Shown here piece after piece: positions 1-57,269 of a stretch of 64,000 bases of DNA. The first letter of the stretch is position 1. The number at the start of each line of letters is the position of its first letter. The position numbers and the translations under genes are program-made. The notes below the pieces were generated by a model. It was not told where the DNA came from. It did no database searches and saw only the letters and a program-made list of their open reading frames with translations. The stretch is from a virus (Duplodnaviria; Caudoviricetes), in the IMG/VR virus record IMGVR_UViG_2896201746_000001, positions 48,121 to 112,120 of that record; one strand, written 5' to 3'.

Positions 1-2039
1 ACTGCGGCGGCGAGACGCTGAAGGTCGTCAAGCACTTCGCGGCGCGCATCGAGAAGTGGCACACCCTGCCCTCGACGGCCGCGGCCTATGACGAGGCCAA
101 GGCGATCCTGGCCGAGCTGGACAAGCTCAACCAGCAGGCCAAGCAGCCGCCGATGCCCCCTCCTCCCCCGCCCCCGCCTTCCCAGCAGCCCAACGAAGAG
201 ACGGGTGAGGGTGGCGGCCAGGGCCAGCAGGACGAGCGCGACAGCAGCGGCGAAACCGAGAACGAGGAGTGCTCGTCGAACGCCGATCCCGATGAGCCTG
301 TCGAGCAGGACGATGACGGCGGCAACAGCGAGGGCAGCGCCGGCAGCGACAGCGACGAAGAGGCCGAACACGACGAGGCGTCCGGGGTCGATGACGCCGA
401 CGGCGACCAGGGCGAGGGGGAGCAGGATGACGAGCAATCGGCCGGCGGATCCGATCAGGACGATGCTGACGATGGCGATCAGGGCGGCGATGGTAGAGCC
501 GGCGGCGACGGCGCTGATGAAGGAGCTGACGACGATCAGGGCGATGGCGATGCTGCCGGCCCGGCCGCTTCCGAAGGCGACGAAGACGAGGCTGCTGGCG
601 ACGACGCCGATGACGGGGACGACGGCTCTGCTGGCGGCGATGCTGATGGCGAGGACGCCGACACCGGCGCAGACGCGAACGGCGCTGGAGGCGATGGCGA
701 CGCAGATGATGACGACGCTGCGGACGCTGGAGACGACAGCGAAAGCGATGCGGGCGGCGCTGGAGGCGATGCCGGCGAAGATGGCGCAGACGGCGAGGAC
801 GATGAGGGCGACGCCCCGGCCCCTGGCGATGACGGTGCCGGCGATGAAGATGGCGATGCCGCCGGCGACAGCAACGGCGACGATCCGGGAGGCGATGGAG
901 AGGGCGAGGAGGCTGACGACGAGCCGGTAGAGGACAGCCAGGAGGCCAGCGACGGCCGCGGCACCGATGACGTCGCCGAGGGCGGACCGAGCGGCATGCG
1001 CGGCGTGCTCGATGCGCTGTGCGGCGAGCAGAAGCGCGAGGCGCTCGAAAAGTCGTCGACCCTGCACGCCGTCATGCAGAGCGAGATCGAGGTCGACAGC
1101 CGTGCCGTCACCGGCCATCGCGCCTACACCGAAGAGTTCGATCAGATCATCGAGCCGGTCGGCGAGGCGACGCTGGAGAGCTACAGCCGGGCCTACGACG
1201 CGGTGAAGCCCTACGTCAACGTCATTGCCGGCGTGCTGACCCGTGTTCTGCTGTCGCGCACCACCGCGACCACGCTGCGCGGCCGGCACTCGGGCGCGGT
1301 CAGCTTGAATGCGATCAGCCAGCTCCGCGCCGGCCAGTCGAACGTCTTCCAGACCCGCCAGGAGGGCGCGAAGCTCGACACTTACGTCGAGCTGGTCGTC
1401 GATCACAGCGGCTCGATGGACGGAAGCAAGATCGAGACGGCGATGCAGACCTGCATCGCGCTTGCCGAGAGCCTGGCGAAGATCGGCATCCCGTTCGGCA
1501 TCTCCGGCTTCACGACCGGACTTGGCTGCGAAGAGCACGAGGCACAGGACAAAGATCTGTGGCGACGCGCCCGCGATTACGTCTATGGCGCGTTTGCCAA
1601 TCCCGATCTGGCCGACTTCGAGCGGATCGACCCGATCGTCGAGTTCCGCTACAAGACGCCCGAAATCCCGTTCGCCCAGATGAAGACCAAGCTCGCGCTG
1701 ATGCCCGGGCAGATGATGGGGGCCAACGCCGACGGCGACAGCATCTACAAGATCGCCAAGCGCGTCTCCCGCCGGCGGGAAAGCCGCAAGGTCATCATCG
1801 TCATGTCGGACGGCTTCCCGGCCGCGCGCCAGGGCAAGAACATCGAGGGCGACGCGGCCGAGCGCTACATGGCCCATGTCGCCAAGCTGCTCGCCCGGAC
1901 GCCGGGCCTGGAGCTGGTCGGAATCGGCATCATGTCGGACGCGGTGAAGCACTACTACCCGCGCTGCGCCGTCATCAACAACGTCGCCGATCTGCCGGCC
2001 GTGGCGATGAACGAACTCAAACACGCCCTGATGGGGTAA
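1..2039 (+). CDS. CobT-like VWA-domain protein with long acidic Asp/Gly low-complexity linker (5' end outside window)
   Basis: MIDAS motif LVVDHSGSM and C-terminal KVIIVMSDGFP...LVGIGI; the frame is open upstream of 153; adjacent to a CobS-like AAA gene. Confidence 0.8.
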   Translation, partial: CGGETLKVVKHFAARIEKWHTLPSTAAAYDEAKAILAELDKLNQQAKQPPMPPPPPPPPSQQPNEETGEGGGQGQQDERDSSGETENEECSSNADPDEPVEQDDDGGNSEGSAGSDSDEEAEHDEASGVDDADGDQGEGEQDDEQSAGGSDQDDADDGDQGGDGRAGGDGADEGADDDQGDGDAAGPAASEGDEDEAAGDDADDGDDGSAGGDADGEDADTGADANGAGGDGDADDDDAADAGDDSESDAGGAGGDAGEDGADGEDDEGDAPAPGDDGAGDEDGDAAGDSNGDDPGGDGEGEEADDEPVEDSQEASDGRGTDDVAEGGPSGMRGVLDALCGEQKREALEKSSTLHAVMQSEIEVDSRAVTGHRAYTEEFDQIIEPVGEATLESYSRAYDAVKPYVNVIAGVLTRVLLSRTTATTLRGRHSGAVSLNAISQLRAGQSNVFQTRQEGAKLDTYVELVVDHSGSMDGSKIETAMQTCIALAESLAKIGIPFGISGFTTGLGCEEHEAQDKDLWRRARDYVYGAFANPDLADFERIDPIVEFRYKTPEIPFAQMKTKLALMPGQMMGANADGDSIYKIAKRVSRRRESRKVIIVMSDGFPAARQGKNIEGDAAERYMAHVAKLLARTPGLELVGIGIMSDAVKHYYPRCAVINNVADLPAVAMNELKHALMG

Positions 2040-2054
2040 TAGAGGAATAGCTCA

Positions 2055-2234
2055 ATGGTTCAATTGACGGGCCCCGAGCGCGCGGCCTTGAAGACCGCGC
2101 TGCGCAATGAAATCGAGCGCCTGGAGGCGCTGTGCGGCCTTCGGCACGCCCTCCCCTACGAGAGGGAGTCATGGTCCGAGCAGATCGCTGATTCCAGATC
2201 GGCGCTCGCCAAGTTGGAGGCGCTGTCCGCATAG
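2055..2234 (+). CDS. Small 59-aa helical protein (MVQLTGPERAALKTALRNEIERLEALCG...), absent from the ORF track
   Basis: GAGGA RBS before ATG 2055, open to TAG 2234; fills the cobT-cobS gap. Confidence 0.6.
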   Translation: MVQLTGPERAALKTALRNEIERLEALCGLRHALPYERESWSEQIADSRSALAKLEALSA

Positions 2235-2371
2235 CTCAATGCAGCAATAGCTCTATTCGGCAATGACTCCATGCGTGAACGCGCGGGCACGTCTTCAATT
2301 GCCCTCTGGCGCTCGCGCGTGCGATGTTCTATCAGTCAGCGATGATAATAAACCAATAAGGGGTTTGTGTT

Positions 2372-4579
2372 ATGTCCGCACAGGTGATCGCGATGCGTAA
2401 ACCCGCAATCGACATCGAGGCCAAGGTGAAGTGCCGGGAATGCGGGTTCGAGGGGCATTCCCTCTACAAGCATATCCAGGACGCCCATGGCCTGAGCGCC
2501 GAGGACTACATCGCCAAGCATCCCGGGGCCGAGCTGCTGTCGCCGCTCGGCAATGAGGTGATGAAGGCGCATTTCTCGGCCCAGGCCGAGGTACGCTACA
2601 CCAGCGAGCCGAAATCGTCGATCGACCTGTTCGCCATCGGCTTCGGCAAGGCGACCGGCTACACCAAGCAGATGCCGGTGCGTACCTATGCCGGCTTCAC
2701 CAAGGAGCACGGCGTCCCGGACGTCGATCCGAACTACTACTTCCCCGAGGCCGTCAGCCGCGACCTCATCATGGGCATGGAGAAGGGCGGGCGCGTCTAT
2801 GCCCACGGCCCGACCGGCTCCGGCAAGTGCCTCGGCAAGGGCACGCCGGTGATGATGTTCAACGGCACGATTCGGCCTGTCGAGGATGTGCGGGTCGGCG
2901 ATCTGCTGATGGGGCCTGATAGCTTTCCGCGCCGCGTTGTGGCGATCGGCAGCGGGCGCGAGCCGCTTTATCGCGTCGTGCCGACCAAGGGCGATGCCTA
3001 CGTCGTCAACGAGAGCCATATTCTGTCGCTGCGCATGACGAACGGATCAAAGCGCTCGTGCGGCATTGAGGATGGCTCAATCGTCAACATCGAGGTGCGC
3101 GACTACCTTCAGAAGACATCGACCTTCAAGCATTGTGCGAAGGGCTGGCGCGCTGGTGTCGATTTTCTCCCCCTGGCCGAGCCGCTGCCGCTTGAGCCGT
3201 ATTTTCTTGGTCTTTGGCTGGGTGACGGCAATTCGGCGAACTCGAACATCTGGTCGACGGAACCCGAGATCGGCGCGTATCTTCACGACTACGCCCGTCG
3301 CCTTGGAATGGTGTGCCGCGAGGACCGCTCGGCGTCGTCCGTCGATCTCGTCACCTACTCGATCTCGAAGCCCGGAGGTAAGAAGCATACCCACGTTTTG
3401 CGCCAGGCGCTTCGCCTGCACGGCCTGATCGACAACAAGCATGTTCCGCATGCCTATAAGACGGCATCGCGTTCCGAGCGCCTGGAGCTTCTGGCCGGCA
3501 TCATCGACACCGACGGCTGCCTCGGTGTCGGCGGCTATGATCTGACGCTGAAGTCCGAGCGCCTGCTGGATGACGTGGTTTTCGTGGCGCGTTCGCTCGG
3601 CTTTGCCGCATACAAGGCGGAAGCCAAGAAGACCTGCGCGAACAACGGCGTCGAGGATATCTATTATCGCTGCTGGATCAGCGGCGACATTGACCAGATC
3701 CCGTGCCGCGTCGAGCGCAAGAAGGCGACGCCGCGACAGCAGGTAAAGAATGTGCTGAACGTCGGCATCACGCTGGAGCCGTTGGGCGAGGGCGACTACT
3801 ACGGCTTCCAGATCGAAGGACCGGATCGCCTGTTCCTGCTCGGCGACTTCACGGTGACGCATAACACCACCTGGTTCGAGCAGTTCGCTGCCCGCACCGG
3901 CCGCCCGTTCTGGCGCGAGCAGATGTTCCGCGAAAAGGAGCCGGTCGAGCTGACCGGCCTGTGGGTCGTCAATGACCGCGGCGCGATGGAGTATATGTAC
4001 TCGGGCTTGGTGAAGGCGCTCCAGCAGCCGTCGATCATCTGCTTTGACGAATACGACAGCGGCAACGCGGTCGTCACGGCCATGTGCAACGCCCTGTTGG
4101 AGGGCAAGCCGCTGATCCTGGGCAACAAGGGCGGCGAGAAGATCTGGCCGCATCCGGAGTGCATCATGGTCGCCACCGGCAACACCAACGGCATGGGCGA
4201 CGACACCGGCCTGTATGCCTCGACCAGCGTGCAGTCCTTTGCCACCATGAACCGCTTCCGCATGTTCGTGAAGATCGACTACATGCCGGAGGAGAAGGAG
4301 CGCGAGGTCATCAAGCGCGTCTTCCCGAAGCTCCCCGAGGGCCGGGTGAAGAACATCGCGAAGGTCGCAAAGCTGGTGCGCGACGGTTACATCGGCGGCA
4401 AGGTGAGCTGCCCGCTCTCCACGCGCCAGGTGCTCAACTGGGCGGACTGGGATATGAGCACCGGCGAGTCCGGCCGCTCCTTCCGCCTCGCCTTCGTCAA
4501 CCAGCTCAACGAAACCGACGCGAAGGTCGTCGGCGAGCTGTACCAGCGCGTTTACGCCAAGAGCATCGACGAGGATTAA
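2372..4579 (+). CDS. CobS/MoxR-like AAA+ ATPase with N-terminal C2H2 finger, interrupted by an intein
   Basis: CRECG..H..H finger; Walker A GPTGSGK|T split by the intein; Walker B ICFDEYD; ATGNTNG sensor; MNRF. Confidence 0.85.
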   Translation: MSAQVIAMRKPAIDIEAKVKCRECGFEGHSLYKHIQDAHGLSAEDYIAKHPGAELLSPLGNEVMKAHFSAQAEVRYTSEPKSSIDLFAIGFGKATGYTKQMPVRTYAGFTKEHGVPDVDPNYYFPEAVSRDLIMGMEKGGRVYAHGPTGSGKCLGKGTPVMMFNGTIRPVEDVRVGDLLMGPDSFPRRVVAIGSGREPLYRVVPTKGDAYVVNESHILSLRMTNGSKRSCGIEDGSIVNIEVRDYLQKTSTFKHCAKGWRAGVDFLPLAEPLPLEPYFLGLWLGDGNSANSNIWSTEPEIGAYLHDYARRLGMVCREDRSASSVDLVTYSISKPGGKKHTHVLRQALRLHGLIDNKHVPHAYKTASRSERLELLAGIIDTDGCLGVGGYDLTLKSERLLDDVVFVARSLGFAAYKAEAKKTCANNGVEDIYYRCWISGDIDQIPCRVERKKATPRQQVKNVLNVGITLEPLGEGDYYGFQIEGPDRLFLLGDFTVTHNTTWFEQFAARTGRPFWREQMFREKEPVELTGLWVVNDRGAMEYMYSGLVKALQQPSIICFDEYDSGNAVVTAMCNALLEGKPLILGNKGGEKIWPHPECIMVATGNTNGMGDDTGLYASTSVQSFATMNRFRMFVKIDYMPEEKEREVIKRVFPKLPEGRVKNIAKVAKLVRDGYIGGKVSCPLSTRQVLNWADWDMSTGESGRSFRLAFVNQLNETDAKVVGELYQRVYAKSIDED
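2828..3865 (+). mobile_element. Intein with LAGLIDADG homing endonuclease (346 aa)
   Basis: Starts CLGKGTPV, block B VNESHIL, YFLGLWLGDG and LLAGIIDTDG motifs, ends DFTVTHN followed by Thr; inserted in the P-loop. Confidence 0.93.
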
Positions 4580-4685
4580 GCGCGCCGTCGTCTATATGTC
4601 ACCGCTGACGGACAGTAGCTTTTCCCCGCTCTGTCTGTCAGCGCTATAGTCATTTCACGAGTTATTTTTGTGGAGCGCAGTGACA

Positions 4686-5515
4686 TGGACGACGTGATCT
4701 TCGAGGCCTCGCTCGTCGAGGCCGAGCTTCAGGCATTCCGCAGCCGTCCCTGCTACGGCACGCTGGCTCAGCCGGTCGCGCGCTGCGCGCTGTGCCTGGT
4801 TCATGACGACTGCGTGGCGCTGCGCAGCGAGGCTGCGGCCTCGCTCGACGTGATCGCCGAGCATTACGCCTATCTGCTGGCCGCCCGGCCCGCGCCGGCT
4901 ACCTCCTGGCCCGAGGTGTTCGACGAGCTGGCGGTCGAAGCGACGCCGGCCCCGCAGCGCGAGCGCCGCCCTGCCGCCCGCCCCCGCCCGGAGGCCTTCG
5001 ACTTCCGCGGCGTCATGCTGCGGCCGGACGGCGAGACGCTGGTGACGAAGACCCAGCTCACCGTCTCCGGCGATTTCCAGCAGCGCGCGAAGGACGTCCC
5101 CTGGCCCGAGCTGTTCTGCATGGAAAGCGGCAGGGATTACCGCATCACCTGCCCGGCCACCGAAGACCGCGACAAGCGCCACCAGATCGACTGGTATCGC
5201 GCGGGAAGCTGCGTCGCCGTGATGCCCGACCTCGACCAGTTCGCCAATCTCGGCAACCCCTATGCCGGTCAGAGCCACGTCATTGGCGGCTCGATCGCCT
5301 ACTGGACCTGGGAGATTGCCGGCGGCATGGCCGAGACGGTGCCGGTCGCGCCGCAGGACATCACCGACCGGGTGCTGTCGGCGTCGGGCATGCGCGGGAC
5401 GGCCTACAACAAGGCCTGCGTGCGCGACGCCCTGCGCGACATGGCGCTGTTCGGAATCCTGCGCCGCTGCCGGCGCATCGACAACGGACATCTGGTTTTT
5501 ATCATCGAGAGGTGA
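4686..5515 (+). CDS. Hypothetical phage protein (N-terminal Cys cluster)
   Basis: Long ORF with typical codon bias between the cobS-like gene and dnaE; start approximate. Confidence 0.6.
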
Positions 5516-5749
5516 TAATCTCCCGCCAGTCACAGAGCGGGACTGTGCTCCAAGAGCCACTGCCGGGGCAGGCGACTTCAAGCGCCGGCTCTTCCAAGCC
5601 TATCCTGCGCGCGAGCGCCGACCATGTGTTCCCCGCAATCGACGTCGTTGATGTAGACCATGGTGAAGGTGGGAAGCCCCGGCACTATTCGTTTGACCAT
5701 ATGTCAGTAATTAGTGAAGTATACGCAGACGCTGTTTTGTGAGGGCGAG

Positions 5750-8700
5750 ATGAGCATTCCCTTTCACCACCTGCACGGCCACAGCTTTTTCAGCAATCTC
5801 CTGCAGCCTGACGCGCTCTCGTCTCCGGACGACCTCGCCAAGCGCGCGGCCAGCGTCGGTCTGTCCTCGATCTGCGTGACCGATCATGCGTCGATCGCCG
5901 GCGTGCCGGCGCTGCTGAAGGCGGCAAAGAAGCACGGGCTGAAGGGCATCGTCGGATCCGAGCTTTACTGCACGACCGACCCCGCATGGCGGCCGGCCAG
6001 CAAGGAGGAGGGCCGGCGCGACTACAGCCATGTCGTCGCGCTCGCGCAGAACCAGGATGGCTTCACCGAGCTGTGCCGGCTGCTGTCGAAGGCCTCCGGC
6101 GAACCGAACTTCTACGGCAAGCCGCGCAATGCCTTCGCCGACCTCTATGAGACGAAGAACCTGATCTTCACCACTGCCTGCGCCGGCGGCGTGCTCAAGC
6201 GCGGCGACGCCGACTGCGTGCTGCGCGAGCTGGTGGCGGCCGTCGGGCCGGAGCGCGTCTACCTGGAGATCCAGCCCCATCAGGACGAGGGCCAGCGCCT
6301 GGTCAACGCGCGGGCGGTGCATCTGCGCGACCAGCTCGGCCTGCGCCTCGTTGCCACCCAGGATTTCCACTACGCCAACCCCGGCGACAATGTCGGCCAT
6401 GAGGTGCTGCTGGCCGTCGGTAGCCAGGACGTCTGGTCGAACCCGGAGCGCTGGCGCTACCCGGTCGACGACCTCTATGTGAAGTCCGGCACCGAGATGC
6501 TCCAGGCCTTCGCGCCCTGGATCAAGTCGGGCGCGCTCGACAAGGCGCATGTGCTGGAGGCGTTCGAGAGCACGGCGATCATCGCCGACCGGCTCGGCTT
6601 CGAGCTGACCAACCGCGCGATCTCCCTGCCGAAGATGTCCGACGACAGCCGCAAGACGCTGCTGGTGATGGCCGGCGAGGCGCTCAAGCGCAAGGGGCTG
6701 GCCGGCGACGAGCGCTATGTGAAGCGCCTCGTCCATGAGATGAACGTGCTGACCGAGGCCGGCTTCCTCGACTATTTCCTGATCCTGGCCGACATCATCG
6801 CCTGGGCGAAGCGCAACGGCATCGCGGTCGGCCCCGGCCGCGGCTCGGCCGGCGGCTCGCTGCTGTGCTATCTGATCGGCATCACCACGATCGACCCGAT
6901 CCGGCACGGCCTGATCTTCGAGCGCTTCTTCCGTCCCGGCCGCCTCGACCTGCCCGACATCGACACCGATTTCGAGGACGAGCGCCGCGACGAGGTGCTC
7001 GACTACATCGAGCGCAAATACGGCAAGGACCATGTCTGCGGCGTGGCGAGCTACACCATGCTCAAGCCCCGCGGCGCGATGAAGGACGTCGGCCGCGTCT
7101 TCGAGATCAACCACGTCGAGATCAACCAGGTCACGGGCGCGATCAAGGTGCCCGACATCCAGGTCGACGATCCGGAGGCCGAGAAGGCGCATGCCGAGGA
7201 GATCTTCGCCGACCCCGCCGTCGCCGGCTTCTTCCGCAAGTACCCGGTCGTCGAGCCGCATGTCCGCGCGCTGACCGGCTGGATGCGCGGCACCGGCCAG
7301 CATGCCGCCGGCGTCGTGATCTCCGGCGTGCCCGTCGCCGACCTGTGCGCGCTGCTGCGCGGCAAGGACGGCCGGCGCGTGTCGTGCTGGGACAAGTGGC
7401 AGATCGAGAACATGGGGCAGATGAAGCTCGACATTCTCGGCCTGCGCACGATGACGATCCTGCGCCACGCCGCCGAGTATGTGCTCCAGCGCACCGGCCG
7501 CCGCATCGTCTACGAAGACCTGTCCCTCGACGATCCCCGCACCCTGGAGCTGTTCGACAAGGGCGATACGACCGGCGTGTTCCAGTGCGAGAGCCACGGC
7601 ATGCGCGAGGTCTTCAAGGGCTGCAAGGTCGACCGCTTCTCGATCATCGCCGACGTGATCTCGCTCTACCGGCCCGGTCCGATGAAGGAGATCCCGAAAT
7701 ACCAGCAGGTCCAGACCGGGCAGATTCCGGCGACCTACATGCACCCGCTCCTGCAGCCGATCCTGGAGCCGACCTTCGGCACCCTGATCTATCAGGAGCA
7801 GATGATGGAGGTGTTCGTGCAGGTCGGCGGCTTCGACTTCACTGAAGCCGACAAGATGCGCAAAATCTGCGGCAAGAAGCTGGGGCCGGCCGAGTTCGCC
7901 AAGCATGCACCGCCCTTCATCGAGGGCGCGAAGCGGAACGGGCTGACCGAGCAGGAGGCCGAGGCGATCTTCGCGACGATGGCCGAGTTCGGCATCTACT
8001 CGTTCAACAAGTCCCACGCCTACGCCTACGCCACCATCGCCTATTGGACGGCCTACATGAAGGCCAACTTCCCGGCCGAGTTCTGGGCAGCGCATCTGTC
8101 CTGCACCGAATCGTCCGAGAAGCTGAAGCTGGCGATGAAGGACGTGGTGAAGGCCGGCATGCAGATCGACTGGCCGAACGTTAACACCTCCCACGCCACG
8201 CGCTTCGTACCGATCTCCGACGTGATGATCGCAGCGCCGCTGACCGCGATCCACGGCGTCGGCGAGAAGGCGGCCGAGCTGATCGCCGGCGCTCGCGAAG
8301 GGCGCATCGACAACCAGGGCCTGGCCCGCGGCGAAGCTCGGCAAGAGAAGAAGGGCATCGTGCAATTCGACGCGAGCCGGACAGTCGCAGGAGCGTTTAC
8401 AAGCGCCCAGGATTTCGCCAATCGCATCTATGCGCGTGTCGTCAACAAGCGCGTGACAGACGCCCTACAGAGCGTTGGAGCGTTCCCTTGGGCACGTCCG
8501 CATGACGACGTGCTGACAGCGAAGCGACGCGAACTGATGAAGGATCTCGCGGTCGACGTGCTGACGGTCGACACCGGGGCAACGCTGCTGATCGACAACT
8601 CGACGGTGGCGGCGTTGCAGCGCATCTTTACGGTCCTGCCCGTGTTCGAGCAGGAGACGAAGATGAAGGCGGTCTACCCCGGCATGACCGGCAAGTCGGC

Positions 8701-9130: not shown

Positions 9131-9171
9131 CTTCTCTATCAGTCACTAATTACAAATATAAAGGTGATGAT

Positions 9172-9462: not shown

Positions 9463-9465
9463 GCG

Positions 9466-37121: not shown

Positions 37122-37382
37122 ATGAAAACAACCAAGACCGCGCGCAGTGTTAGACTTCCAGATCGCCGGACCACGATCGAGATGGAGGACGAGTTCTGGG
37201 ATGCTCTTTACGAAATTGCCGGTCGACAGAACATCGGCCTGGACGAACTGGCCGGCCGGCTCGATCAGCGCCGGGGCGACAACACGCTGACGACGGCCTT
37301 GCGCGTCTATGCGGTCTCCTACTACCGTTCGGCCGTGAGCGCCCAAGAGACCGGCGCGGCCACGACGCCTCGCATTAACTGA
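37122..37382 (+). CDS. Ribbon-helix-helix domain protein
   Basis: RSVRLPDRRTTIEMEDEFWDALYEIA...LTTALRVY, typical of the alphaproteobacterial RHH family. Confidence 0.8.
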   Translation: MKTTKTARSVRLPDRRTTIEMEDEFWDALYEIAGRQNIGLDELAGRLDQRRGDNTLTTALRVYAVSYYRSAVSAQETGAATTPRIN

Positions 37383-48476: not shown

Positions 48477-48483
48477 TAACACT

Positions 48484-48653: not shown

Positions 48654-48785
48654 AAAATCCGCTAAACCAAGCAAGTCTCGTGAACAACCCTAGCGCTCGC
48701 GTGTTGACCAATGTATCTTATGACGGATCGTCATAGCGATGATACCGCAGCCGTCATGCTGGCTGCTGAACACGAGGAGGCGAAC

Positions 48786-48947: not shown

Positions 48948-48974
48948 TCGTCGCCTTAACCGAAGCCCCATTCG

Positions 48975-49008
48975 AGGCCGGTGAGCGATAACCGCTCCCG
49001 GCCTTTTT
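48975..49008 (+). terminator. Intrinsic terminator
   Basis: AGGCCGG..GAGCG/CGCTC..CCGGCCT plus TTTT. Confidence 0.75.
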
Positions 49009-49774
49009 CATTGCCCACCCGGAAGCCCGCAAACTCCAGGCAAATCAACGCTTCCAGCCCCATAGACGGCCATCTTCCGGTTATCGTGATGGCATTTCCG
49101 ATCACTCCCAGGCAAACAACCTCGCAAACCCATTGTGGATCAATGCGTTAGCCCACGCTCCGCAGAAACAGGCTATCGCCCTAGCCCGATCTGTCGATTC
49201 CGCCTATGGATCACCCCGCAGAAGACAGCCGATTCCGTCTATGTAGACGCCCGGTGAGCGCCAGGAGAGATCACAGCGCATAGCCGCTCGACGACACGCA
49301 GAACGCTTTTGCAGATACGTGCAAGGCGCTCGCAGGATCGCGCTGGATAAGCCCGGAAACGCAAGCGCATCAACGCGAGAGCAGCATGATCGACCGGGCA
49401 TCTCCACGACGCGCCTATGAGCTGCCGGGAATAGCGCGGGGGAGGGCACAGCGCATAGGGAGCGGCTCGTATAGAGGCTCGGGACATAGAAAACACAGGG
49501 TCGTCCAGGAGGCGCGATACGAGGACACGAGGCTACCCGAGAGGTGAGATATGAGGGATGCGACAGGGGGACGGAACTACTCGATAGGCGAGAGGGGTAT
49601 CGCGTCTTTTTGTGAGCCGCGCTCGCCCGGGGGCTGCGGTCCTGTTCATTGAGGCGGCCGGAGCAGGGAATAGCCGGGCGGGTGGAGGCCCTGGGACTTG
49701 CCGCCGGTGGGCCTCAGCCGCTGGGACAGGAGGCTGCTGTTCGGCCTCCTGCCGAGCCGTGGCCAACACCAAGG

Positions 49775-50044
49775 CTATCCACGAGCCGTGCGCCCTGGTT
49801 CATCCTCGTCGACCCGCCAACGCCAATACCGCTCGGGCTTAACCCAAACCACCGTGGTTGGCGTCAGCGCCTGAAAGGCAGCAAGAACCGCCTTGCCGAC
49901 AACCTGATTGCCGTCAGCGTTTTCGGTCAGCAAGTCCTCCCTCTTTGCCTTCACGAGGTAGTCCACCACGTCATCCTGGTAGATGCAGCCTTCGCGCTCG
50001 ATCTGCGCAAGCATCCAAGCCGCGACCGTGGCGGGCGTCATCAT
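49775..50044 (-). CDS. Small conserved hypothetical protein
   Basis: Overlaps the stop of the YodC-like gene; VVWVKPERYWRWR. Confidence 0.6.
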   Translation of the reverse strand: MMTPATVAAWMLAQIEREGCIYQDDVVDYLVKAKREDLLTENADGNQVVGKAVLAAFQALTPTTVVWVKPERYWRWRVDEDEPGRTARG

Positions 50045-50232
50045 TCGGCCTTGGGCGTCGGCTTAATTTCCTCCAACGAGTCGACCGGAAAATGGCCCTG
50101 CTCCAACTTCTTGCCCGCAAACCACTGGGCGTAAAGGAAGCCACCGTCCGTCTTGGTCCTTACTGTCATTTCTGGGCCGCCCGACTTCAGCTTGACAATT
50201 GTGCCGACCGGAAATTGTTTGCTATTGCTCAT
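50041..50232 (-). CDS. YodC/DUF2158-family protein
   Basis: FPVGTIVKLKSGGPEMTV...QWF.G.....F....L. Confidence 0.8.
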   Translation of the reverse strand: MSNSKQFPVGTIVKLKSGGPEMTVRTKTDGGFLYAQWFAGKKLEQGHFPVDSLEEIKPTPKAE

Positions 50233-50289
50233 TTTCCATATTCCTTTTTGAAGGTTGGTGCCTGCACTATACCAAATGTCGCTACAATA

Positions 50290-50840
50290 AGGGGGAGAAG
50301 CGTCTTCCCGACCATCCAGTCGGGAAGAATCGCCGCGTCCAGCTCCGTATTGCGGTTTCAAATGGAAACCGCAATACCCGCCCCGAGCAGGGACTCGCTG
50401 GGCCGCAGGGGAGGTGTAGGCAAAGCTCCGCCTTCCGCTATCTCCCCGTAGGCCCGAACCATCGGCCGGGCCATTGGAAGCGGAACTGGGAGGGGCTGTC
50501 TCAGGCGCGTATCGGTGGGATGCGATTTTCACCGGCTCGCCACACCGTCCCGTCTTCGTTTGGCCGGTCCTCGCAAGGATCGCCGGCAGGGTGGAGCACC
50601 CACGTCCACGGTTCAAAGTCCCACCTACTCCCCAGGCCCAGCCCGGCCGTCGGGAGGCACGGAAGCCCAGACCCTCCGGTCTGGTGAAGATGCCCGCGCC
50701 GGCCCCGCATTTCACCTCCGCGGGGCAAGAGGTAGGCCTGGCTTTTTACCGGAACCCGACACGAGCCTAGGGCAAGACCGGGAACTCGGTCCCCAAGGGC
50801 GCTGCCAGCTTCGCTCCCAGGGGGACGGGTGGGAGCATAT
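50290..50840 (+). ncRNA. Candidate large structured non-coding RNA
   Basis: No credible ORF; TACAAT immediately upstream; many nested stems (see findings). Strand inferred. Confidence 0.5.
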
Positions 50841-50956
50841 GCAGACGGCTCGCCTGATTCAAGTAATCAGTGAAGGTAATGGACAAAGTTGCTTTTCCGT
50901 GCGCTGTCATCGAGCGATGATGAGTCATCGACAACGACAGCCCGGAGCACAGAGCA

Positions 50957-51163
50957 ATGTCCGAGATGACGATCACCAGCCCGACCGGCCGCCGCTTCAG
51001 CGTGACCCGCGAGGGCATCAGCTACCGCTACACGATCACCGAGCCGGACGGCCGCACCGTCCCGCATGAGCTACTCGGCCATGCCGACTGCCGCGAGCTG
51101 ATCTCCTACGACCTGTTCATCGAGCAGCGCAACCTGACCAGCGCCTACGCCTGCGCCGCATGA
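50957..51163 (+). CDS. Small hypothetical protein
   Basis: After an operator; coupled operon. Confidence 0.55.
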   Translation: MSEMTITSPTGRRFSVTREGISYRYTITEPDGRTVPHELLGHADCRELISYDLFIEQRNLTSAYACAA

Positions 51164-51360
51164 GGATCGCCATGACCGCCAAGCCCAACATCGAGGACGT
51201 CTTCGCTGCCTTTGCCGCGTTCCAGGGCGAGAGTGCCCGGATCGTCACCAGCCTGAACGCGATGCACCGCGCCCGGGCCTTCGACGAGGCCCGCGAGACG
51301 CTGAAGGCCCGGCTGACCCAGCTCGGGCTGGCCGAGCATATCGACTGGACGGAGCGCTGA
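51160..51360 (+). CDS. Small hypothetical protein
   Basis: ATGA overlap. Confidence 0.5.
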   Translation: MRIAMTAKPNIEDVFAAFAAFQGESARIVTSLNAMHRARAFDEARETLKARLTQLGLAEHIDWTER

Positions 51361-51473
51361 TCGACACCGGCACGGCGCGCTTTCTCTCGCCGATCGGCAG
51401 CGCGTCGTGCGAGTCTTCATCTGTCAGCAGTGACTGACATCAACACGCAACCTCAACTCTGGAGCACAGCATC

Positions 51474-51848
51474 ATGACCAACGACAAGATCGCCATCGCC
51501 CTTGCCGAGATCGCCGAGATGGGCCGGGCTTGGGAGAACGCCCGCCATGCCAAGCCGAGCCTCGCCAACAAGCTCGCCAGCGTGATCGCCGATCGCTGCC
51601 GCGACGCTTCCGAGCTGGCCAAGCGCCACGGCGTCCAGCTCGCCGCCTACTCCGGCGACTACATCCAGGCGGTAATGGAGCAGATCGGCGCAGGGCGCAA
51701 GCAGGCGCTGGCGGCGGCGAAGACGGGCGGCGGCATCACGATCCGGACGATGACCCGCGTCGTCGACGAGCCGCAGCAGCCCCTCCAGCAACCCGAGCAG
51801 CGCGTCGACATCGACTTCGGCGACGAGTTCGGCATCCTGCCGACCTGA
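51474..51848 (+). CDS. Hypothetical protein
   Basis: GGAG RBS; strong codon bias. Confidence 0.6.
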   Translation: MTNDKIAIALAEIAEMGRAWENARHAKPSLANKLASVIADRCRDASELAKRHGVQLAAYSGDYIQAVMEQIGAGRKQALAAAKTGGGITIRTMTRVVDEPQQPLQQPEQRVDIDFGDEFGILPT

Positions 51849-51927
51849 TTCCGGCCGCGTAGCTGATCCGAGCGGGGCGGCGCTGTGATGGCGTCCGCCC
51901 CGCAACTGTCTCTCACGGAGCGGAGCA

Positions 51928-52109
51928 TGAAGAAGACCATTCCCCTCGACATCCTGATCGACCTCGACCGCGTCAACGACCGTCGCCTCCGGCTCGCCTC
52001 CAAGACCCATCACCGGCCCCGGCAGAACCGTGCCCTAATGCTGCGCCGCCGCCTCGACCAGGCCGTGCGCCGGCTGATCGCCACCATGCCGCTGGAGCTG
52101 GTCCAGTAA
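51928..52109 (+). CDS. Small basic hypothetical protein
   Basis: GGAG RBS, MKKTIPLDIL; start approximate. Confidence 0.45.
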
Positions 52110-52249
52110 TGGATTTGCTGATCGAGCTGTGGGCCGGCGTCTGTGCGCTCGGCATCGTCATGGGCATCGTGCGCGGCCTAACCGTCCCTGATCCCGTCTC
52201 CGTCTTCGTCGGCATCTGTCTGGCGCTGTTCGCTGGCCGGCGCTGACAC

Positions 52250-52370
52250 GGGAATAGCGGCCGGTGTGGTGGGGCTGGGAATCGCTGGCCCGCCTGCCTG
52301 CGCACGGGAATAGCTGGCCCGCCCCCGAGGGCTGGGAATAGACGGGCGGGTGGACGCGCGCGGGAATAGC
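52250..52370 (+). repeat. Five GGGAAT(A/C)G(C/A) repeats at ~28-bp period
   Basis: Copies at 52250, 52277, 52306, 52334 and 52362. Confidence 0.8.
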
Positions 52371-52778
52371 CGGGCCGCGGGAGGCCCTCCCCCTGCCCAC
52401 GGCCCTCCGGCCGCCCCACCCCGGCGCTCCCTCGCCCCGGCGGCCCTGCCCGCCCGGCCTCCGGCCGGCCCGTGGTCCTGTCGGTGGCCCGCCGGCGGGC
52501 CTATGGGGAGGAGGGGGTGTGGCTGCGCCGGCGGCGACGATTCCTCTTGACAGGAGGCTCTTATCTGTGAAGCTGTCGAACTTGGATCCTGAATACTTTC
52601 CTATTGATTTCCTAATGTTTCTTCTTATCGAAAAAACGTGTTTCACTCGTAATTGTCAGTTTCAAAGATAATCTTTAACACTAGGCATCTTTCAAATCAC
52701 TTTTGCGAGATCATAGCATGGCTTTCCTGTCAAGACAAAATTGTCAGTCCCTAGTGAAATTCCTCTGGAATAAATCTC

Positions 52779-52807
52779 TTGTGTTATCAGTAAGCGCTTA
52801 GTATAAA
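52779..52807 (+). promoter_or_regulatory. Sigma70-type promoter with TCA-N8-TGA-like operator in the spacer
   Basis: TTGTGT-tATCAGTAAGCGCTTAG-TATAAA (17-bp spacer). Confidence 0.7.
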
Positions 52808-52879
52808 GACGTTGTTAGCGCGTTGCGTTGACGGTCAGGGAACTCCCTCCCTGATCCACTCTTTCCAACGGAGCACACT

Positions 52880-53452
52880 ATGTCGGACGTCAAGAGCGTT
52901 GAATTTAAGGCCGTCGAGCTGGTCGCCGTCGAAAGCGCCAAAGTTGCCATGCAGCCGCGCATGAACAAGCTGCCCAAGCCTGTTTACTTCTACTTTGACA
53001 CTGCCGAGCAATATCTGCCGCACGGCACGGAAATTGATGACGAATTTCTCTACAATCATCAAGTCGGTGGCAAGGCAAAGTCTTCCTACATTGGTCGCAT
53101 GCCCAATGTGGAGTTGGCTAAGAGCGGAAAGAACCCGTATGCTGATATCAGCAATACCGACACTGTCGTTACCCTGGAAAGCTATCGCCATCTCCTGCCC
53201 GTTGCGCCGCAAGTTTGGGAAGTCCTGAGCAAGTCCAAAACTCCGCTTCTGGCTTGTGAAATTATGCAGGCTGTGGCTAAGAAGAACGCGGACATGAGCA
53301 AGTTGAAGTGGTTTAACGAAGCTGTCCGTTCAACGCTCATTGATCTGTGCATGTTTGGACTGGCAAAGCGTGACACTGTGAAAGTCAACGTGAGCCGCAC
53401 TCGTTTCCAGGCAACTGACCCGAAGGCAATTGAGATTGTCGCGAAAGCGTAA
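52880..53452 (+). CDS. Protein with C-terminal winged-helix domain (regulator/initiator candidate)
   Basis: QVWEVLSKSKTPLLACEIM...AVRSTLIDLCMFGLAKR; GGAG RBS; distinct codon usage. Confidence 0.65.
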   Translation: MSDVKSVEFKAVELVAVESAKVAMQPRMNKLPKPVYFYFDTAEQYLPHGTEIDDEFLYNHQVGGKAKSSYIGRMPNVELAKSGKNPYADISNTDTVVTLESYRHLLPVAPQVWEVLSKSKTPLLACEIMQAVAKKNADMSKLKWFNEAVRSTLIDLCMFGLAKRDTVKVNVSRTRFQATDPKAIEIVAKA

Positions 53453-54238
53453 AATCTCTTGACAGTGAGCGCGAGACGTGAGTTAGCGTCTCGCGCTTCA
53501 CTTCACAGACAATGTTGCACAAGCGCAACTCAAGTTTTTCCACTCGATTGTCAAGAGATTTTTCTTGTTGACACGGCACGTAATCTTGGGAGCGGTAAAA
53601 AAAAGCGGGGGTGCTGTCGAAGTGGGATGCGGTCGTTTCCCCGCGCGGCGGATTTAATTAAGGCCTTTACTCCGTGCGCAATACCCCGCCGTTCGCTGCG
53701 CAGTGTGGCAGGTGGGAGGGTGGCCGTGTGGAAGGTGGCAGGGTGGGTGCTGACCGCTGGGTGGGGCCTGGTGGGGTGAAGCCAGGGCCTTTGCCCCGTG
53801 TGGACTGGCAAGAGGTGGCCGATGGACGTGATCGCGGACAGGGTCAGGCAGTGGTTCGTACAGATGCGGGCGGCCGGCGCGGTGGAGATTCAGCACTACG
53901 GACGGAACGGAACGGCTGGCGGCGGTGCGCTGGGAGGACGTGCTGACAGCGGCCGGAGGCTGGGCGGAGGGTTGGTGATGACCATCAACGGTGACGCTGC
54001 AATGGCCTGTTGACTCCTTAGATTGATCGTGGCATAGCCATACTTGCTTTCGCTACGGGCACTTGTCGCTGCCATACGCACCCTGACGCTTATCGCGCAG
54101 TCCGCGTATTGCTCAAAGGATCGCTAGATCCAGTAGCATCAATAGTTATGGTTGAAACACCTTAACCACGCCAATCCCAACGTGGCCGAAGGTAATGAGC
54201 AGCGCATTACACAAGCATGGCCACGCCGGAGGTTCGGC

Positions 54239-54829
54239 ATGTTCTGCAATCTTAAAGGAGCCAAGGCGCGAGCTAAAGCACTTGGCAAGGCTCTTGACGC
54301 TATAGGCGTCGAGGCACCGCATAGCGATTGCCTGGACGTAATCGCTCAGGCGGCCAACCCGAAGTTCTCGGGCTGGCATGAACTGGTACAGGCCCTCAAG
54401 AACGACGAGCGTCTGGAGGTTGACAACTATCAATTCCAGACATCGCTTATGACGATTCTCTCTGACTCTCTTCCTGATGAGCAGCTTGCGCCGGTGATGA
54501 TAAAGTTCTGCGGCTCAGGATACAAGAAACCACCGCTGATTCGCCGCCCTCTCGTGCTGGAAAATGGGGATCTAGCTCCAGGAACATTTAATCTTCTCGG
54601 CACGGCAGAATCCCAAGAATTCATTGATGAGATGAACAGGGGCTATGGCAGCGGCGACTTCTTCGCCAATGTCGACAGCCCGCACGCTCAGGCAATGAAG
54701 GCTGCCGCCGATCGTATGTTTGAGCCTCAGAGAATGGCAAGGGCAGCGCTGAACAAGCAAAGGGAAGAGCGCCAGCAGCGGATCGCAGCTAAGAAGCTCT
54801 TCGTCGTTAAGACCAAGAAGAAGGGCTGA
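54239..54829 (+). CDS. Hypothetical protein with 'glyoxalase-superfamily'-type N-terminal helical domain
   Basis: AKARAKAL...HSDCLDVIAQ...FSGWHEL; GGAGG RBS. Confidence 0.55.
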   Translation: MFCNLKGAKARAKALGKALDAIGVEAPHSDCLDVIAQAANPKFSGWHELVQALKNDERLEVDNYQFQTSLMTILSDSLPDEQLAPVMIKFCGSGYKKPPLIRRPLVLENGDLAPGTFNLLGTAESQEFIDEMNRGYGSGDFFANVDSPHAQAMKAAADRMFEPQRMARAALNKQREERQQRIAAKKLFVVKTKKKG

Positions 54830-54831
54830 CA

Positions 54832-54868
54832 TCGAAATGGGGCGTCCATCATGGACGCCCCATTTCGA
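54832..54868. terminator. Bidirectional hairpin between convergent genes
   Basis: Perfect 18-bp inverted repeat TCGAAATGGGGCGTCCAT-C-ATGGACGCCCCATTTCGA. Confidence 0.7.
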
Positions 54869-54897
54869 CATACATTTCACATGCCCTTCATGGATCC

Positions 54898-55101
54898 TTA
54901 AAGACCGATCTTTGTGTAACTCACACCGCGCTTGGTCAGTTCAGCCTCGATTTCATCAGCTTGCAGCTTCCAATCAGGAAACGTGCGGACCATAAACGGC
55001 TTGTCCTGCCCTGCCGGCGTGTTGTCATCGACCGCCAGTGCATTAGCGATAGCGCCATGCATCATCAACAAAGACTGCGTCGTATATCCGGGAACGTTCA
55101 T
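54898..55101 (-). CDS. Small hypothetical protein
   Basis: GAGGAG RBS, MNVPGYTTQSL. Confidence 0.55.
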   Translation of the reverse strand: MNVPGYTTQSLLMMHGAIANALAVDDNTPAGQDKPFMVRTFPDWKLQADEIEAELTKRGVSYTKIGL

Positions 55102-55142
55102 AGCGCTTCTCCTCAATGATAATCTGAAGTTTCTTTTGCCGG

Positions 55143-55502
55143 CTATTTCTGACGGGGATCCACAGGCTGAAGATCATAGATCTCATCTCCGCGAACAATG
55201 CAGAGGATTTCATTCGATCTGATACCCATGACGCCAGTAGTGTTCTGAACAGCATACTTCAAAACGAAGTCATTCCCGCTGGCTCTCGGGTCGTCTTGGC
55301 TAACTACCCATCCACTGGCCTTCGGCTTGTCGGGGCTTGGGTCAAGTCGCTTCTGAATGGCGGCGGCGCATTTGTCAGCGAGTTCGAGCCGGCTTGGTCC
55401 GGTCGGGGCCACGGACATGCTCTTTCCGGTCTGCACGCATCCAGCAGCGAGCAGCACCACCGAAGCCACAAGTACATTACGGAACGCCAGCAACATCTTC
55501 AC
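55143..55502 (-). CDS. Lipoprotein
   Basis: Lipobox LAAG-C. Confidence 0.65.
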   Translation of the reverse strand: MKMLLAFRNVLVASVVLLAAGCVQTGKSMSVAPTGPSRLELADKCAAAIQKRLDPSPDKPKASGWVVSQDDPRASGNDFVLKYAVQNTTGVMGIRSNEILCIVRGDEIYDLQPVDPRQK

Positions 55503-55836
55503 TCCCTACAACCGGACGCTCTGCATCCGTCAATCCATGACGCATTACATACATTAGTATGCAATGACTGACCCACTCGGTGCTCCGCGCTGCATGCAGC
55601 GTAATGGTTCACCTTCCTGCGCGGCAATCCTCGTTACGAGTTTAACCGCTAGTGGTTTCCTAGCAAATCGCCTTCAACCTGTCATCCCGCTTCAGCAGTT
55701 TTTACGAGCGCAGGAGAACTCGCGCGTCCTTGTAGAAGCAGGGTGGTTTACAGCCTGGACTTGGCGCGTCTTGCACATGGCATCGACACCCATTCCGTGC
55801 GACGATGCGGCCAATCATGCCGCATAGGACAGTCCC

Positions 55837-56490
55837 ATGCCCCGCGAGCCGCAAAACCCGTTCGAGTTCCTGCTGCGCGAGCTGATCGAGCGACCGGAGG
55901 GGCCGGCGGCGCTGGGCGCGATGAAGATGGTCGAGGATGCGCTGAGCGTGAACCTGGACGTCGTGGAGGGCGTCGTTAACGCGCTCGCCGCCCGGATCGA
56001 GACGCCCGACGCCCCGGACCTGGAGAAGCGGCTCGACGACGCGGTGAAGGCCTGGGAGGAGCGCTGCGGCGCGCCGATGACACCCAGCCTGCTCGACAGC
56101 CTCCGGCAGGATGCCGAGACGCTGGTGCAGAAGCGCATGCAGCAGCCGCCCCGCTGCGTAGAGATCCTCGACGGCTGGGACGCCGGTGCGCGCGATCTCG
56201 GCTATGAGATCGGCGGGCTGCTGGACGGGCCGGAAGGGACGTTGCATCGGCTGTGGTCGGCGATCTCGATGGATCTGGCGCTCGATGCGATCAGCGCCCG
56301 GGACAAGGCCGCGGCCAGCGCTGCCGGCGCGGATGAGGAATCGGCCGTCGACGAGATCAAGCGGCAGTTCGAGGTGGCGATCGGCCGGCCGATGTCCGAG
56401 GGCGAGTGGAGCCGGCTGCTGGAGCATGCGGCGCGGCATGCGGAGCGGGTGATGGTGCCGATCATGACGCGGGGCCTGGGCGCGCGATAA
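55837..56490 (+). CDS. Hypothetical protein
   Basis: 217-aa ORF with coding bias. Confidence 0.6.
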   Translation: MPREPQNPFEFLLRELIERPEGPAALGAMKMVEDALSVNLDVVEGVVNALAARIETPDAPDLEKRLDDAVKAWEERCGAPMTPSLLDSLRQDAETLVQKRMQQPPRCVEILDGWDAGARDLGYEIGGLLDGPEGTLHRLWSAISMDLALDAISARDKAAASAAGADEESAVDEIKRQFEVAIGRPMSEGEWSRLLEHAARHAERVMVPIMTRGLGAR

Positions 56491-56505
56491 CGCCCAGGCA
56501 TCCGA

Positions 56506-56745
56506 TCAGGCCGACGCGCTGGAGCGGCGTTCCGGCTCGTGCCTGCCGCTGAGCGACCAGATCAGGATGAAGATCCAGAACAGCGGCATCCAGCCGAAGA
56601 CGATGTTCGCGACGACGATTCCCCAGAAGCTGGAATGGTCGCGCCTGATGGCGATGACGGTCGGCAGGAACATCAGGCCGAGCAGCGCCGTGATGACCAG
56701 TGCGCCGCCGACGAACGGAACAAGCTCTCCCATCGCCGGCCTCAC
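56506..56745 (-). CDS. Superinfection immunity protein (T4 Imm-like)
   Basis: FLPTVIAIRRDH...IVVANIVFGW...WIFILIWSL. Confidence 0.8.
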   Translation of the reverse strand: MRPAMGELVPFVGGALVITALLGLMFLPTVIAIRRDHSSFWGIVVANIVFGWMPLFWIFILIWSLSGRHEPERRSSASA

Positions 56746-57116
56746 ATGCAGGGAGCGACGCGCTTGTTCCAGATCTCGTCGGGATGGAGCGTCCAGTCGC
56801 CCTCCCGCAGTCCAAGCACCGTGACCTTGGTCTGCGTCGGCGAAACCTTGGTGAAATCGGCCATTGCGCCGTAGGTGACGCCCTTCGTGAACGACCAGAC
56901 GGCCGTACCGGAATCCGGGTAGAGCTGCTGGTAGCCGGGATTGATTCCCTTGGTGACAAAGCAGCGGAATACCTCTTCGAGCGGCTTGTCGACGACGCCG
57001 CTCTGGCTGTCCGCGACCCTACGGAAGTTATCCTCGCCGGCGACCATGAAGGTGCATCCGCACAGGGAGAGCGCAGCGGCAAAAAGAACGAGCTTTCGCA
57101 TCGGTTGTTTCTGCAT
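56742..57116 (-). CDS. Lipoprotein
   Basis: Lipobox LCG-C; overlaps the imm start. Confidence 0.6.
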   Translation of the reverse strand: MQKQPMRKLVLFAAALSLCGCTFMVAGEDNFRRVADSQSGVVDKPLEEVFRCFVTKGINPGYQQLYPDSGTAVWSFTKGVTYGAMADFTKVSPTQTKVTVLGLREGDWTLHPDEIWNKRVAPCM

Positions 57117-57269
57117 CAGGTTTTCAACGTGCGCTTAGTCTGCGAAATGCCGGGCGGTCGTCAAGATCAGACTTGCCATTGAGCTATTGCTGTATGGGTG
57201 AATTGGTCAATTTGCCTAGTTGTCATTCAGCGGTTACATTAAGGCGGTTCGCCCGTCCGGAGCCGCTGA

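Follow-up and report, generated by a model that had tools for sequence, protein, structure and literature searches.

Ribbon-helix-helix (RHH) proteins that bind centromeres have, to our knowledge, been described with a single array of repeats, or a few, next to the genes that encode them. The met boxes of MetJ are tandem 8-bp sites, roughly palindromic, with one RHH dimer per box, and in the phage-plasmid N15 the inverted-repeat (IR) sites are scattered through the genome. In the sections of the sources that deal with the binding sites, OF of TP228 consists of eight variant ACTC boxes, direct and inverted, with 4-bp AT-rich spacing and one ParG dimer per box; parH has twelve further boxes, and four or six boxes retain about half of the activity (PMC3130281). 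In pSM19035 there are six parS sites of 7-10 heptads that overlap promoters, and an omega dimer binds each heptad in any orientation; activation of ParA requires at least four contiguous repeats, and omega is both a global repressor and a centromere binder (PMC9499535). For SopB of N15 four natural IR sites are described (bioRxiv 10.1101/862136). Here we describe dispersed arrays in which AT recurs every 8 bp, found in the Caudoviricetes virus record IMGVR_UViG_2896201746_000001. The DNA analysed, called the window, is the last 64,000 bases (48121-112120) of this single 112,120-bp record; positions marked w refer to the window and positions marked genome to the whole record, which has direct terminal repeats and a completeness rated at 100%. 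The GC content is 63-64% in genome and window. The array feature is real and under selection.

A first-pass annotation of the window had listed fourteen loci with AT at exact 8-bp spacing, and all 14 are correct, including their unit counts (Table 1). At period 8 the window has 13 runs of at least four units (three of 4, five of 5, three of 6 and two of 7 units), against at most two runs of 4 units, and none longer, at periods 3-7 and 9-15. A scan of the whole replicon against shuffled sequence, which the annotation had proposed as a check, gives the same picture: there are 17 runs of at least 4 units, 11 of at least 5 and 6 of at least 6, while 200 shuffles of the whole genome, preserving dinucleotides inside 500-bp blocks, contain on average 0.43, 0.03 and 0.005 such runs (maxima 3, 1 and 1). 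Upstream of the window there are three further good arrays (genome 34089, 40421 and 46928) and one that is weak and doubtful (genome 44319). The phasing can also be seen from the boxes themselves: with a strict box defined as CAATnG or CnATTG, the genome holds 168 boxes, and lags of 8, 16, 24 and 32 bp are seen 18, 11, 7 and 5 times, compared with 0-1 time for any other lag up to 40 bp. Four extra 3-unit runs in the window (w22530, w37024, w44581 and w48602) all lack the G..C pattern described below, and we ascribe them to chance, since the shuffles average 9 runs of at least 3 units per genome.

The units are highly degenerate. Among 87 units the octamers are mostly distinct, the commonest being found three times, and neighbouring units do not show the high identity of a microsatellite. 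Tandem Repeats Finder (TRF), run at its lowest score of 30, reports five of the 14 window arrays, with 64-85% matches. The arrays illustrate that repeats which are phased but highly degenerate escape standard repeat finders, and in the open-access literature we found no phage described as having dispersed arrays phased at 8 bp.

In total there are about 86 boxes in about 17 loci, with 3-7 boxes each, over 71 kb. Unit positions that played no part in the detection are also constrained: G at position 4 is found in 63 of 87 units, C at position 7 in 58 and A at position 8 in 42. The hexamer about each AT is a degenerate form of the palindrome CAATTG. In 86 boxes, 26 have only the CAAT half, 21 only the ATTG half, 8 have both (CAATTG) and 31 have neither; the outer C is present in 64 boxes, the outer G in 65, and both together in 49. 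Between successive ATs (n=69) the most frequent tetramers are GCTC (11), its complement GAGC (10) and GCCC (7), so each unit may be regarded as a 4-bp spacer centred on AT together with a tetramer G(A/C)(G/T)C that can face either way. Two-fold symmetry of this kind suggests a dimer bound to double-stranded DNA. The layout also agrees with the earlier suggestion that the layout resembles that of RHH-bound boxes, as an 8-bp repeat of tetramer plus AT-rich spacer is what the source describes for the TP228 boxes (PMC3130281).

Four arrays lie inside genes. The first-pass annotation claimed that these copies use rare codons, and this is so: GC at third codon positions is 0.50 under the four arrays and 0.89 genome-wide. 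The codons under them include CAA, ATT, CTA, TTG, TCA and AGG, each making up 1.5-9% of its synonymous family (in the genome CAA is 6% of Gln, ATT 9% of Ile, and CTA and TTG 1.6% and 3.7% of Leu). When synonymous codons are permuted 300 times, a mean of 0.13 runs of at least 4 units remains inside coding sequences (maximum 2), compared with 4 that are truly intragenic; the script counts 6, of which two are due to over-extended start codons. Shuffles, synonymous permutations and rare codons together bear out the claim that selection acts on the arrays at the DNA level.

A relative from estuary and freshwater metagenomes, about 97% identical, gives additional information. Its replacement or indel regions are w9466-9883, w10212-10259, w18867-19305 and w26837-26933. 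In the third, 437 bp are replaced by 29 unrelated nt, and the last 16 of these restore AT in phase (CCATAG.., GCATTT..), so that five boxes remain in the array at w19291; 3 runs from 2 studies show the joint. Loss of phase in a homologous element was named at the outset as an observation that would count against the arrays; phase is kept in this one case. The contigs of the relative carry 679 differences overall. In w8501-9466 there are 20, with 0 in the array at w8881-8920, where the expectation of 0.8 makes this uninformative; the array falls in a stretch of dnaE that is variable among 13 homologues. Of the four regions, one is the loss of a 139-aa open reading frame (ORF) at w9466-9885; the other three are replacements, one of which removes the C-terminal part of the NADAR-domain gene.

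Distant relatives are Methylobacterium and Shinella plasmids of 117 kb, which show weak DNA similarity across the AAA/SbcC-like gene. The phage-plasmid pAMS5a (117.7 kb, Methylobacterium, weak DNA similarity) was scanned whole; it has repC, a different ParA and 0 AT runs of at least 4 units at period 8. That a distant relative with a different par/rep system has no arrays says little either way. Searches for related loci with SbcC, the P0001 alignment (see below), P0130 and P0129 found no relatives. By tblastn, DnaE has relatives in Rhizobium and Pseudomonas phages at about 33% identity or below, megablast of dnaE against phages gives no match, and a scan of metagenome contigs with the DnaE alignment returns at least 80 loci, those listed being cellular-type DnaE at 31-36% identity.

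The arrays are not placed at random in the genome. Non-coding DNA or gene junctions hold 13 of the 17, while a strict gene list leaves 26% of the genome non-coding (p 2e-5). Ten arrays lie behind a plus-strand gene, in gaps of 15-505 nt, and nine of these begin between -20 and +15 nt from the stop codon; for this anchoring p is ~0.035 in a rough test of placement that used the six longer gaps. Several arrays extend across the ribosome-binding site (RBS) and ATG of the next gene. Three lie in divergent promoter gaps (genome 34089, genome 46928 and w57178), and three of the four intragenic ones are found 75-222 nt before a stop. A sigma-70 promoter scan places promoter-like sites at no constant distance from the arrays. 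On a larger scale, the arrays range over 34-105 kb of the 112-kb genome, with 14 of the 17 grouped around the par/rep block (genome 45-47 kb), between 34 and 75 kb, and a stretch of about 41 kb, from w57218 via the genome end to genome 34088 and including the virion operon, is free of them. An identical 20-mer, ATAGAGGAATAGCTCAATGG, comprising RBS and start codon, precedes two unrelated genes (w2039-2058 and w14105-14124); a search of IMG/VR with it returned one unrelated 35.8-kb contig (L130 8289-8308), itself without arrays.

Table 1. The fourteen 8-bp phased arrays of the window and, in the last two rows, copies of a separate 14-bp operator.
Position	Units	Placement and remarks
w2031-2070	5	over the stop of a CobT/VWA-like gene and the RBS and ATG of a 59-aa ORF; begins 9 nt before the end of the upstream gene; gap 15 nt
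w2231-2278	6	from the TAG that ends the 59-aa ORF; 93 nt lie between the array and the MoxR-like/intein gene
w8881-8920	5	within dnaE, 222 nt before the stop, in the uracil-DNA glycosylase (UDG)-like C-terminal domain; partly palindromic; fold z -4.25
w13874-13905	4	within the 5'-3' exonuclease gene, 188 nt before the stop
w14105-14128	3	on the RBS and ATG of the RecA-like gene; 20-mer in common with w2039-2058
w19291-19330	5	on the stop of the NADAR-domain gene; first two boxes differ in the estuary relative yet are in phase
w19567-19614	6	spans the junction of a 52-aa and a 113-aa ORF
w19937-19992	7	fills the 52-nt gap before the SbcC/SMC-like gene, its ATG included
w20844-20875	4	mid-gene in the SbcC/SMC-like gene
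w22836-22891	7	about 11 nt upstream of the ATG of a 196-aa ORF; symmetric centre CAATAG-nn-CAATTG-nn-CTATTG
w26594-26641	6	3 nt past the stop of the ribonucleotide reductase (RNR) small-subunit gene; 14-bp perfect inverted repeat; fold z -4.97; next gap 454 nt
w35624-35663	5	within a 143-aa ORF, 75 nt before the stop
w45359-45390	4	covers the TAA that ends a 92-aa ORF and the ATG of the ORF after it
w57178-57217	5	divergent gap upstream of the terminase/virion operon
w2332, 11749, 11834, 15387, 16475, 22602, 23515, 27039		operator copies (others exist beyond those listed)
w33059, 35778, 40700, 45044, 50907, 59390, 62230		operator copies, continued

The arrays should not be confused with a second family of sites, a 14-bp inverted-repeat operator of the type TCAGTCAGCGATGA (TCA-N8-TGA). 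It has about 25 copies, non-coding and located before early and virion operons, whose position is not fixed relative to the arrays. These operators are probably the regulon of an immunity repressor, distinct from the arrays, and they fit the XRE-type immunity repressor better than the arrays do.

The element has virion genes of siphovirus type, with the large terminase at w58037, the capsid at w62278, the tape measure at genome 3323 and a J-like tail-tip protein at genome 8575; it also has a plasmid replication and partition block, and is therefore a phage-plasmid. The maintenance block lies directly upstream of the window and comprises a Rep_3 initiator, iterons, an 88-aa protein (P0001), a 210-aa ParA and a divergent XRE-type gene. 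The order Rep_3 - iterons - P0001 - ParA - array forms a module 1.2 kb upstream of the window. The iterons, some 12 copies of 22-24 bp (GCCCnATTTCTCACC...) at genome 45591-46061 (L001 12592-13062), between the Rep_3 gene and the RHH/ParA pair, are the plasmid origin of the element.

In its components this module corresponds to a type Ib partition system. The ParA fits the small Walker-type class, whose members have about 200 aa and no DNA-binding domain at the N-terminus; it carries the motif KGGxGKT and matches the Pfam families AAA_31 (1.2e-16), CbiA (2.1e-12), MipZ (2.5e-11) and ParA (3.3e-07). Directly downstream of it, and overlapping the end of parA, lies the gene for P0001 (genome 46033-46299, minus strand), which with modest confidence is the small RHH-fold protein with a flexible N-terminal tail that such systems have at this position. 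As in those systems, tandem short repeats are found upstream of parA, in the form of a 4-unit array 3 bp from its start codon. The first-pass annotation proposed as reader either the RHH protein at 37122 or a protein outside the window. The former is an RHH_4 protein (w37047-37382) with no array beside it, the nearest being 1.4 kb off and inside another ORF; the latter possibility gained a candidate in P0001.

The RHH fold of P0001 is a prediction. In an AlphaFold2 model (pLDDT 71) the N-terminal half is poorly ordered and residues 43-88 form strand-helix-helix. In an exhaustive VIA-align search nearly all of the 50 best chains are RHH proteins (Z 2.6-4.5), including omega 1irq (Z 3.6), ParG 1p94 (Z 3.3), MetJ 1cma (Z 2.8), NikR, RelB and Arc, and the structure neighbours in the Atlas include clusters of CopG type, RHH_10 and clusters carrying ParG. 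Foldseek against the PDB returns nothing at E 0.001, with AmrZ and Arc among the weak rows, and a sequence search of the PDB with the P0001 profile has no match at E 10. Four homologues are detectable among 1.84 billion representatives (E 4e-7 to 3e-5); a fifth weak row, P0126 (318 aa, E 4.4e-5), was left out of the alignment. The family alignment retains an Arg-rich stretch and a C-F-R-x-E strand, for which the fuller motif is (N/Q)-x-C-F-R-x-E. Two of the homologues, P0122 and P0125, are on contigs of 14,614 and 108,934 bp, the same lengths in bp as the contigs of the closest DnaE homologues P0003 and P0007, and from these matching lengths the P0001 gene seems to travel with the phage lineage and to be kept in it. 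Among plasmids, tblastn with P0001 has no match at E 1, and ParA has relatives at 36% identity or less.

Similar arrays exist elsewhere. A 5-box pattern scan of IMG/VR gives 42 loci, mostly perfect 8-mer microsatellites; three records, G001, L090 and L100, have several degenerate arrays each. A palindromic 3-box pattern gives 13 loci in IMG/VR, about what is estimated for chance, and none of them has multiple arrays. One of these, G001 (loci L094, L127 and L128), is a 38,164-bp record of an unrelated Mu-like provirus with a GC of 0.59, 69% complete, with Mu-type portal, terminase and Dam-like methylase genes. It has about 25 arrays of 8-bp units, ATTGAGCC / ATTGAGTC / ATCGGGCC, at nearly every gene junction. 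Its arrays are mostly inverted pairs that give long hairpins (z -5.7 to -12.4), and many units contain GANTC. Such arrays may have originated independently in the two phages, they may be read by a host protein or by another factor that escaped detection, or they may have an RNA or structural role at gene ends. Inverted pairs are also seen in L090, a 6,167-bp contig with five degenerate 8-bp arrays at about 1160-4840, where ATTGAGCG / ATTTAGCG face ATCACTAA / ATCGCTAA.

The reading that we favour, tentatively and with real doubt, is that the arrays are putative cooperative sites for P0001 as a ParG/omega-like RHH protein, and that they serve partition and probably also silencing. A small dimeric protein would bind duplex DNA with one dimer per 8-bp unit and polymerise along each array; most likely this reader would be P0001, acting as the ParG/omega-type centromere-binding protein of a type Ib partition system. 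The 4-box array by the parA start would autoregulate the par operon, and the remaining 16 or so arrays would act as additional small partition complexes. Those at stop codons in the long lytic operons could, once bound, also serve as roadblocks, so that the replication module would be transcribed less in the plasmid state. Partition and silencing by one protein would amount to an omega-like dual role.

Several of the observations above support this reading. The strict 8-bp phasing is far above chance, the two-fold symmetry fits a dimer on duplex DNA, and 16 of the 17 arrays have at least 4 units, the minimum number of contiguous repeats for omega. Further, the intragenic arrays use rare codons and the phase at w19291 is kept in a relative; three arrays lie in divergent promoter gaps and not in one-sense transcripts; 14 of 17 cluster around the par/rep locus; and the P0001 family seems to be kept in the lineage. 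The likeness of the layout to the TP228 and omega sites, the nearby Rep_3-ParA module and the predicted RHH fold of P0001 point the same way, as does a sub-threshold Omega_Repress score of its homologue P0125.

Other observations weigh against it. P0001 is connected to the arrays by analogy and by one adjoining array, which is short and weak (2 of its 4 boxes are strict). The longest arrays, of 7 boxes, are 21-24 kb from parA, whereas known type Ib systems have the longest beside it. A centromere model does not predict that nine of ten arrays are anchored at stop codons. The inner box position has a mild strand asymmetry (p 0.01), which start codons within arrays may explain. The model of P0001 is that of a small domain built from a 5-sequence alignment, with low Z for the fold matches (3.3-4.5), and against Pfam P0001 has no ParG, RHH_1 or Omega_Repress match, none even at E 10. 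ParG (PF09274) has no match anywhere in the genome; for Omega_Repress (PF07764) the best member of the P0001 family, P0125, reaches E 0.0014 and 19.3 bits, below the gathering cut-off of 33.3. The element also encodes other DNA-binding proteins: RHH_4, XRE, two LuxR/GerE proteins and a winged-helix-like 101-aa ORF. Finally, G001 and this genome have no protein in common at E 1e-3, and no match to the P0001 family was found in the G001 record, which is 69% complete; the link to partition is not secure, because there similar arrays occur without a detectable RHH homologue. The original proposal of a partition system thus stands in part: a par module of the right type exists, with an array 3 bp from parA, but the arrays of G001 come without a P0001 homologue and pAMS5a comes without arrays.

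A bolder version would be near-holocentric maintenance. Here an RHH protein would coat about 17 arrays (about 86 boxes) over two thirds of the genome, making them jointly a centromere for a type Ib ParA and roadblocks in the lytic operons, with the hairpin arrays of G001 as a second, independent use of the same grammar. We regard this version as unlikely. If the favoured reading is true, the centromere of a type Ib partition system can be a distributed one, a phage-plasmid can couple partition to the silencing of lytic genes, and binding sites of this kind can shape coding sequence. The system would be compact, consisting of an 88-aa protein and sites of 24-56 bp.

In another explanation the arrays silence genes in the manner of stoperators and do not serve partition. 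A different protein, encoded by the element (for example RHH_4 or an unrecognised small protein) or by the host, would coat them and block or terminate transcription at gene junctions of the lytic operons. Like stoperators, the arrays are many, occur genome-wide and lie mainly in short intergenic gaps (13 of 17); nine of ten begin at the upstream stop codon. This explanation would also cover G001, which has no visible ParA or P0001 homologue, and it agrees with the arrays being distinct from the TCAGTCAGCGATGA-like operators, about 25 in number, by which promoters are marked. However, stoperators are single asymmetric 13-bp sites oriented with transcription, whereas the arrays have 3-7 tandem units and are symmetric in orientation, with 26 forward-only and 21 reverse-only half-boxes. 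RHH_4 has no adjoining array, and no other candidate reader has positional evidence in its favour. The virion operon would need silencing too, yet it lies in the 41 kb without arrays. We find this explanation rather improbable, though the likeliest of the alternatives.

The same attachment to gene 3' ends, shared by three of the four intragenic arrays with their 75-222 nt to the stop, could reflect function in RNA or single strands: hairpins, or protein-binding repeats, that end or stabilise transcripts in the manner of repetitive extragenic palindromic (REP) elements, the G001 hairpins being the full form. The paired arrays of G001 do fold (z -5.7 to -12.4), as do three of 17 here (z -2.8, -4.3 and -5.0), and the boxes have their mild strand asymmetry. 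The other 14 arrays fold at most 2 standard deviations better than shuffles, the mean z being -1.26, so a stable stem-loop like that of a REP element or terminator (z < -2.5) is limited to those three. U-tracts are absent after the arrays, a terminator scan placed no terminator at them and Rfam gave no family match. Forward and reverse half-boxes are equally frequent in one-sense operons, and three arrays sit in divergent promoter gaps, which argues further against an RNA element; we think it quite unlikely. Least probable of all, and by our estimate very unlikely, is that the arrays are recombination linkers or decaying products of slippage, that is, repeats at gene boundaries that aid the exchange of modules or simply persist with no dedicated binder. 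Perfect 8-mer microsatellites are common among IMG/VR contigs, one of four indel or replacement boundaries in the estuary relative falls within the array at w19291, and deletions between stoperators are described for L5-type phages in the relevant part of the source (PMC5712189). But the units differ too much for recent slippage (with the TRF result of 5 of 14 arrays at 64-85% matches), AT, G4 and C7 are fixed while the remaining positions vary, intragenic arrays are maintained against codon bias, and in the relative the replaced sequence restores boxes in phase.

The remaining gene content of the element can be described briefly. Its replication and nucleotide module contains a CobT/VWA-like protein, a MoxR-like AAA protein with an intein, DnaE fused to a UDG-like domain, a 5'-3' exonuclease, a RecA-like protein, an SbcC/SMC-like protein and both RNR subunits. 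The MoxR-like gene (w2372-4579) is split by the intein, which has Hint and LAGLIDADG homing endonuclease domains. In DnaE (w5714-9130) precomputed domains place the UDG-like domain PF03167 at the C-terminus, a fusion found in some but not all of the closest homologues. A restriction-modification pair at w41704-44600 consists of an Eco57I/N6-type methylase followed by a BsuBI/PstI-type endonuclease. At w48507-48570 non-coding DNA contains two near-perfect copies of a 32-bp direct repeat (TRF score 121). Two unrelated ORFs terminate in ..DGW-stop or ..GDW-stop (w19930-19932 and w35732-35734), with no connection to the arrays seen.

How, then, do the arrays compare with the systems described at the beginning? 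With MetJ they share tandem, near-palindromic 8-bp boxes, and putatively an RHH reader. The met-box consensus differs from the box found here, and MetJ is a chromosomal metabolic repressor of gamma-proteobacteria, while no MetJ-like sequence was seen in this element. The resemblance to N15 is of another kind: both are phage-plasmids with several partition sites beyond the par locus, putative ones in the present case. N15 uses a type Ia helix-turn-helix ParB on single inverted repeats, and here the candidate is an RHH protein on tandem octamers. The L5 stoperators, read by gp71, are similar in number and placement, since in the account given by the source about two dozen sites are distributed across a temperate phage genome, mostly in short gaps within operons (PMC5712189). 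As far as that account goes, they are single, asymmetric 13-bp sites that are oriented and read by the immunity repressor, unlike the tandem arrays without orientation bias seen here.

The closest correspondence is with the two RHH-based partition systems. Like OF and parH of TP228 in the sections that describe them, the arrays consist of degenerate tetramer boxes with an 8-bp period, 4-bp AT-rich spacers and both orientations. In both cases the gene that follows a small ParA encodes a small protein whose N-terminus is flexible and whose C-terminal part has an RHH fold, predicted in the present element, and an array lies directly upstream of parA. The box differs, being G(A/C)(G/T)C with AT invariant in the spacer in place of ACTC, and P0001 lacks a Pfam ParG match; TP228 has 20 boxes at one locus, whereas here about 86 boxes are spread over about 17 loci and 71 kb, four of the loci lying inside genes. 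Like the sites of omega of pSM19035, in the portion of the source that covers them, the repeats here are short, contiguous and in mixed orientation, and form several separate arrays; 16 of the 17 arrays in this element have at least 4 units, and P0125 gives the sub-threshold Omega_Repress hit. The period here is 8 bp and not 7, and there are 17 loci and not 6. While the omega arrays described there lie at promoters of maintenance genes, most of the arrays in this phage-plasmid are found at stop codons within lytic operons.

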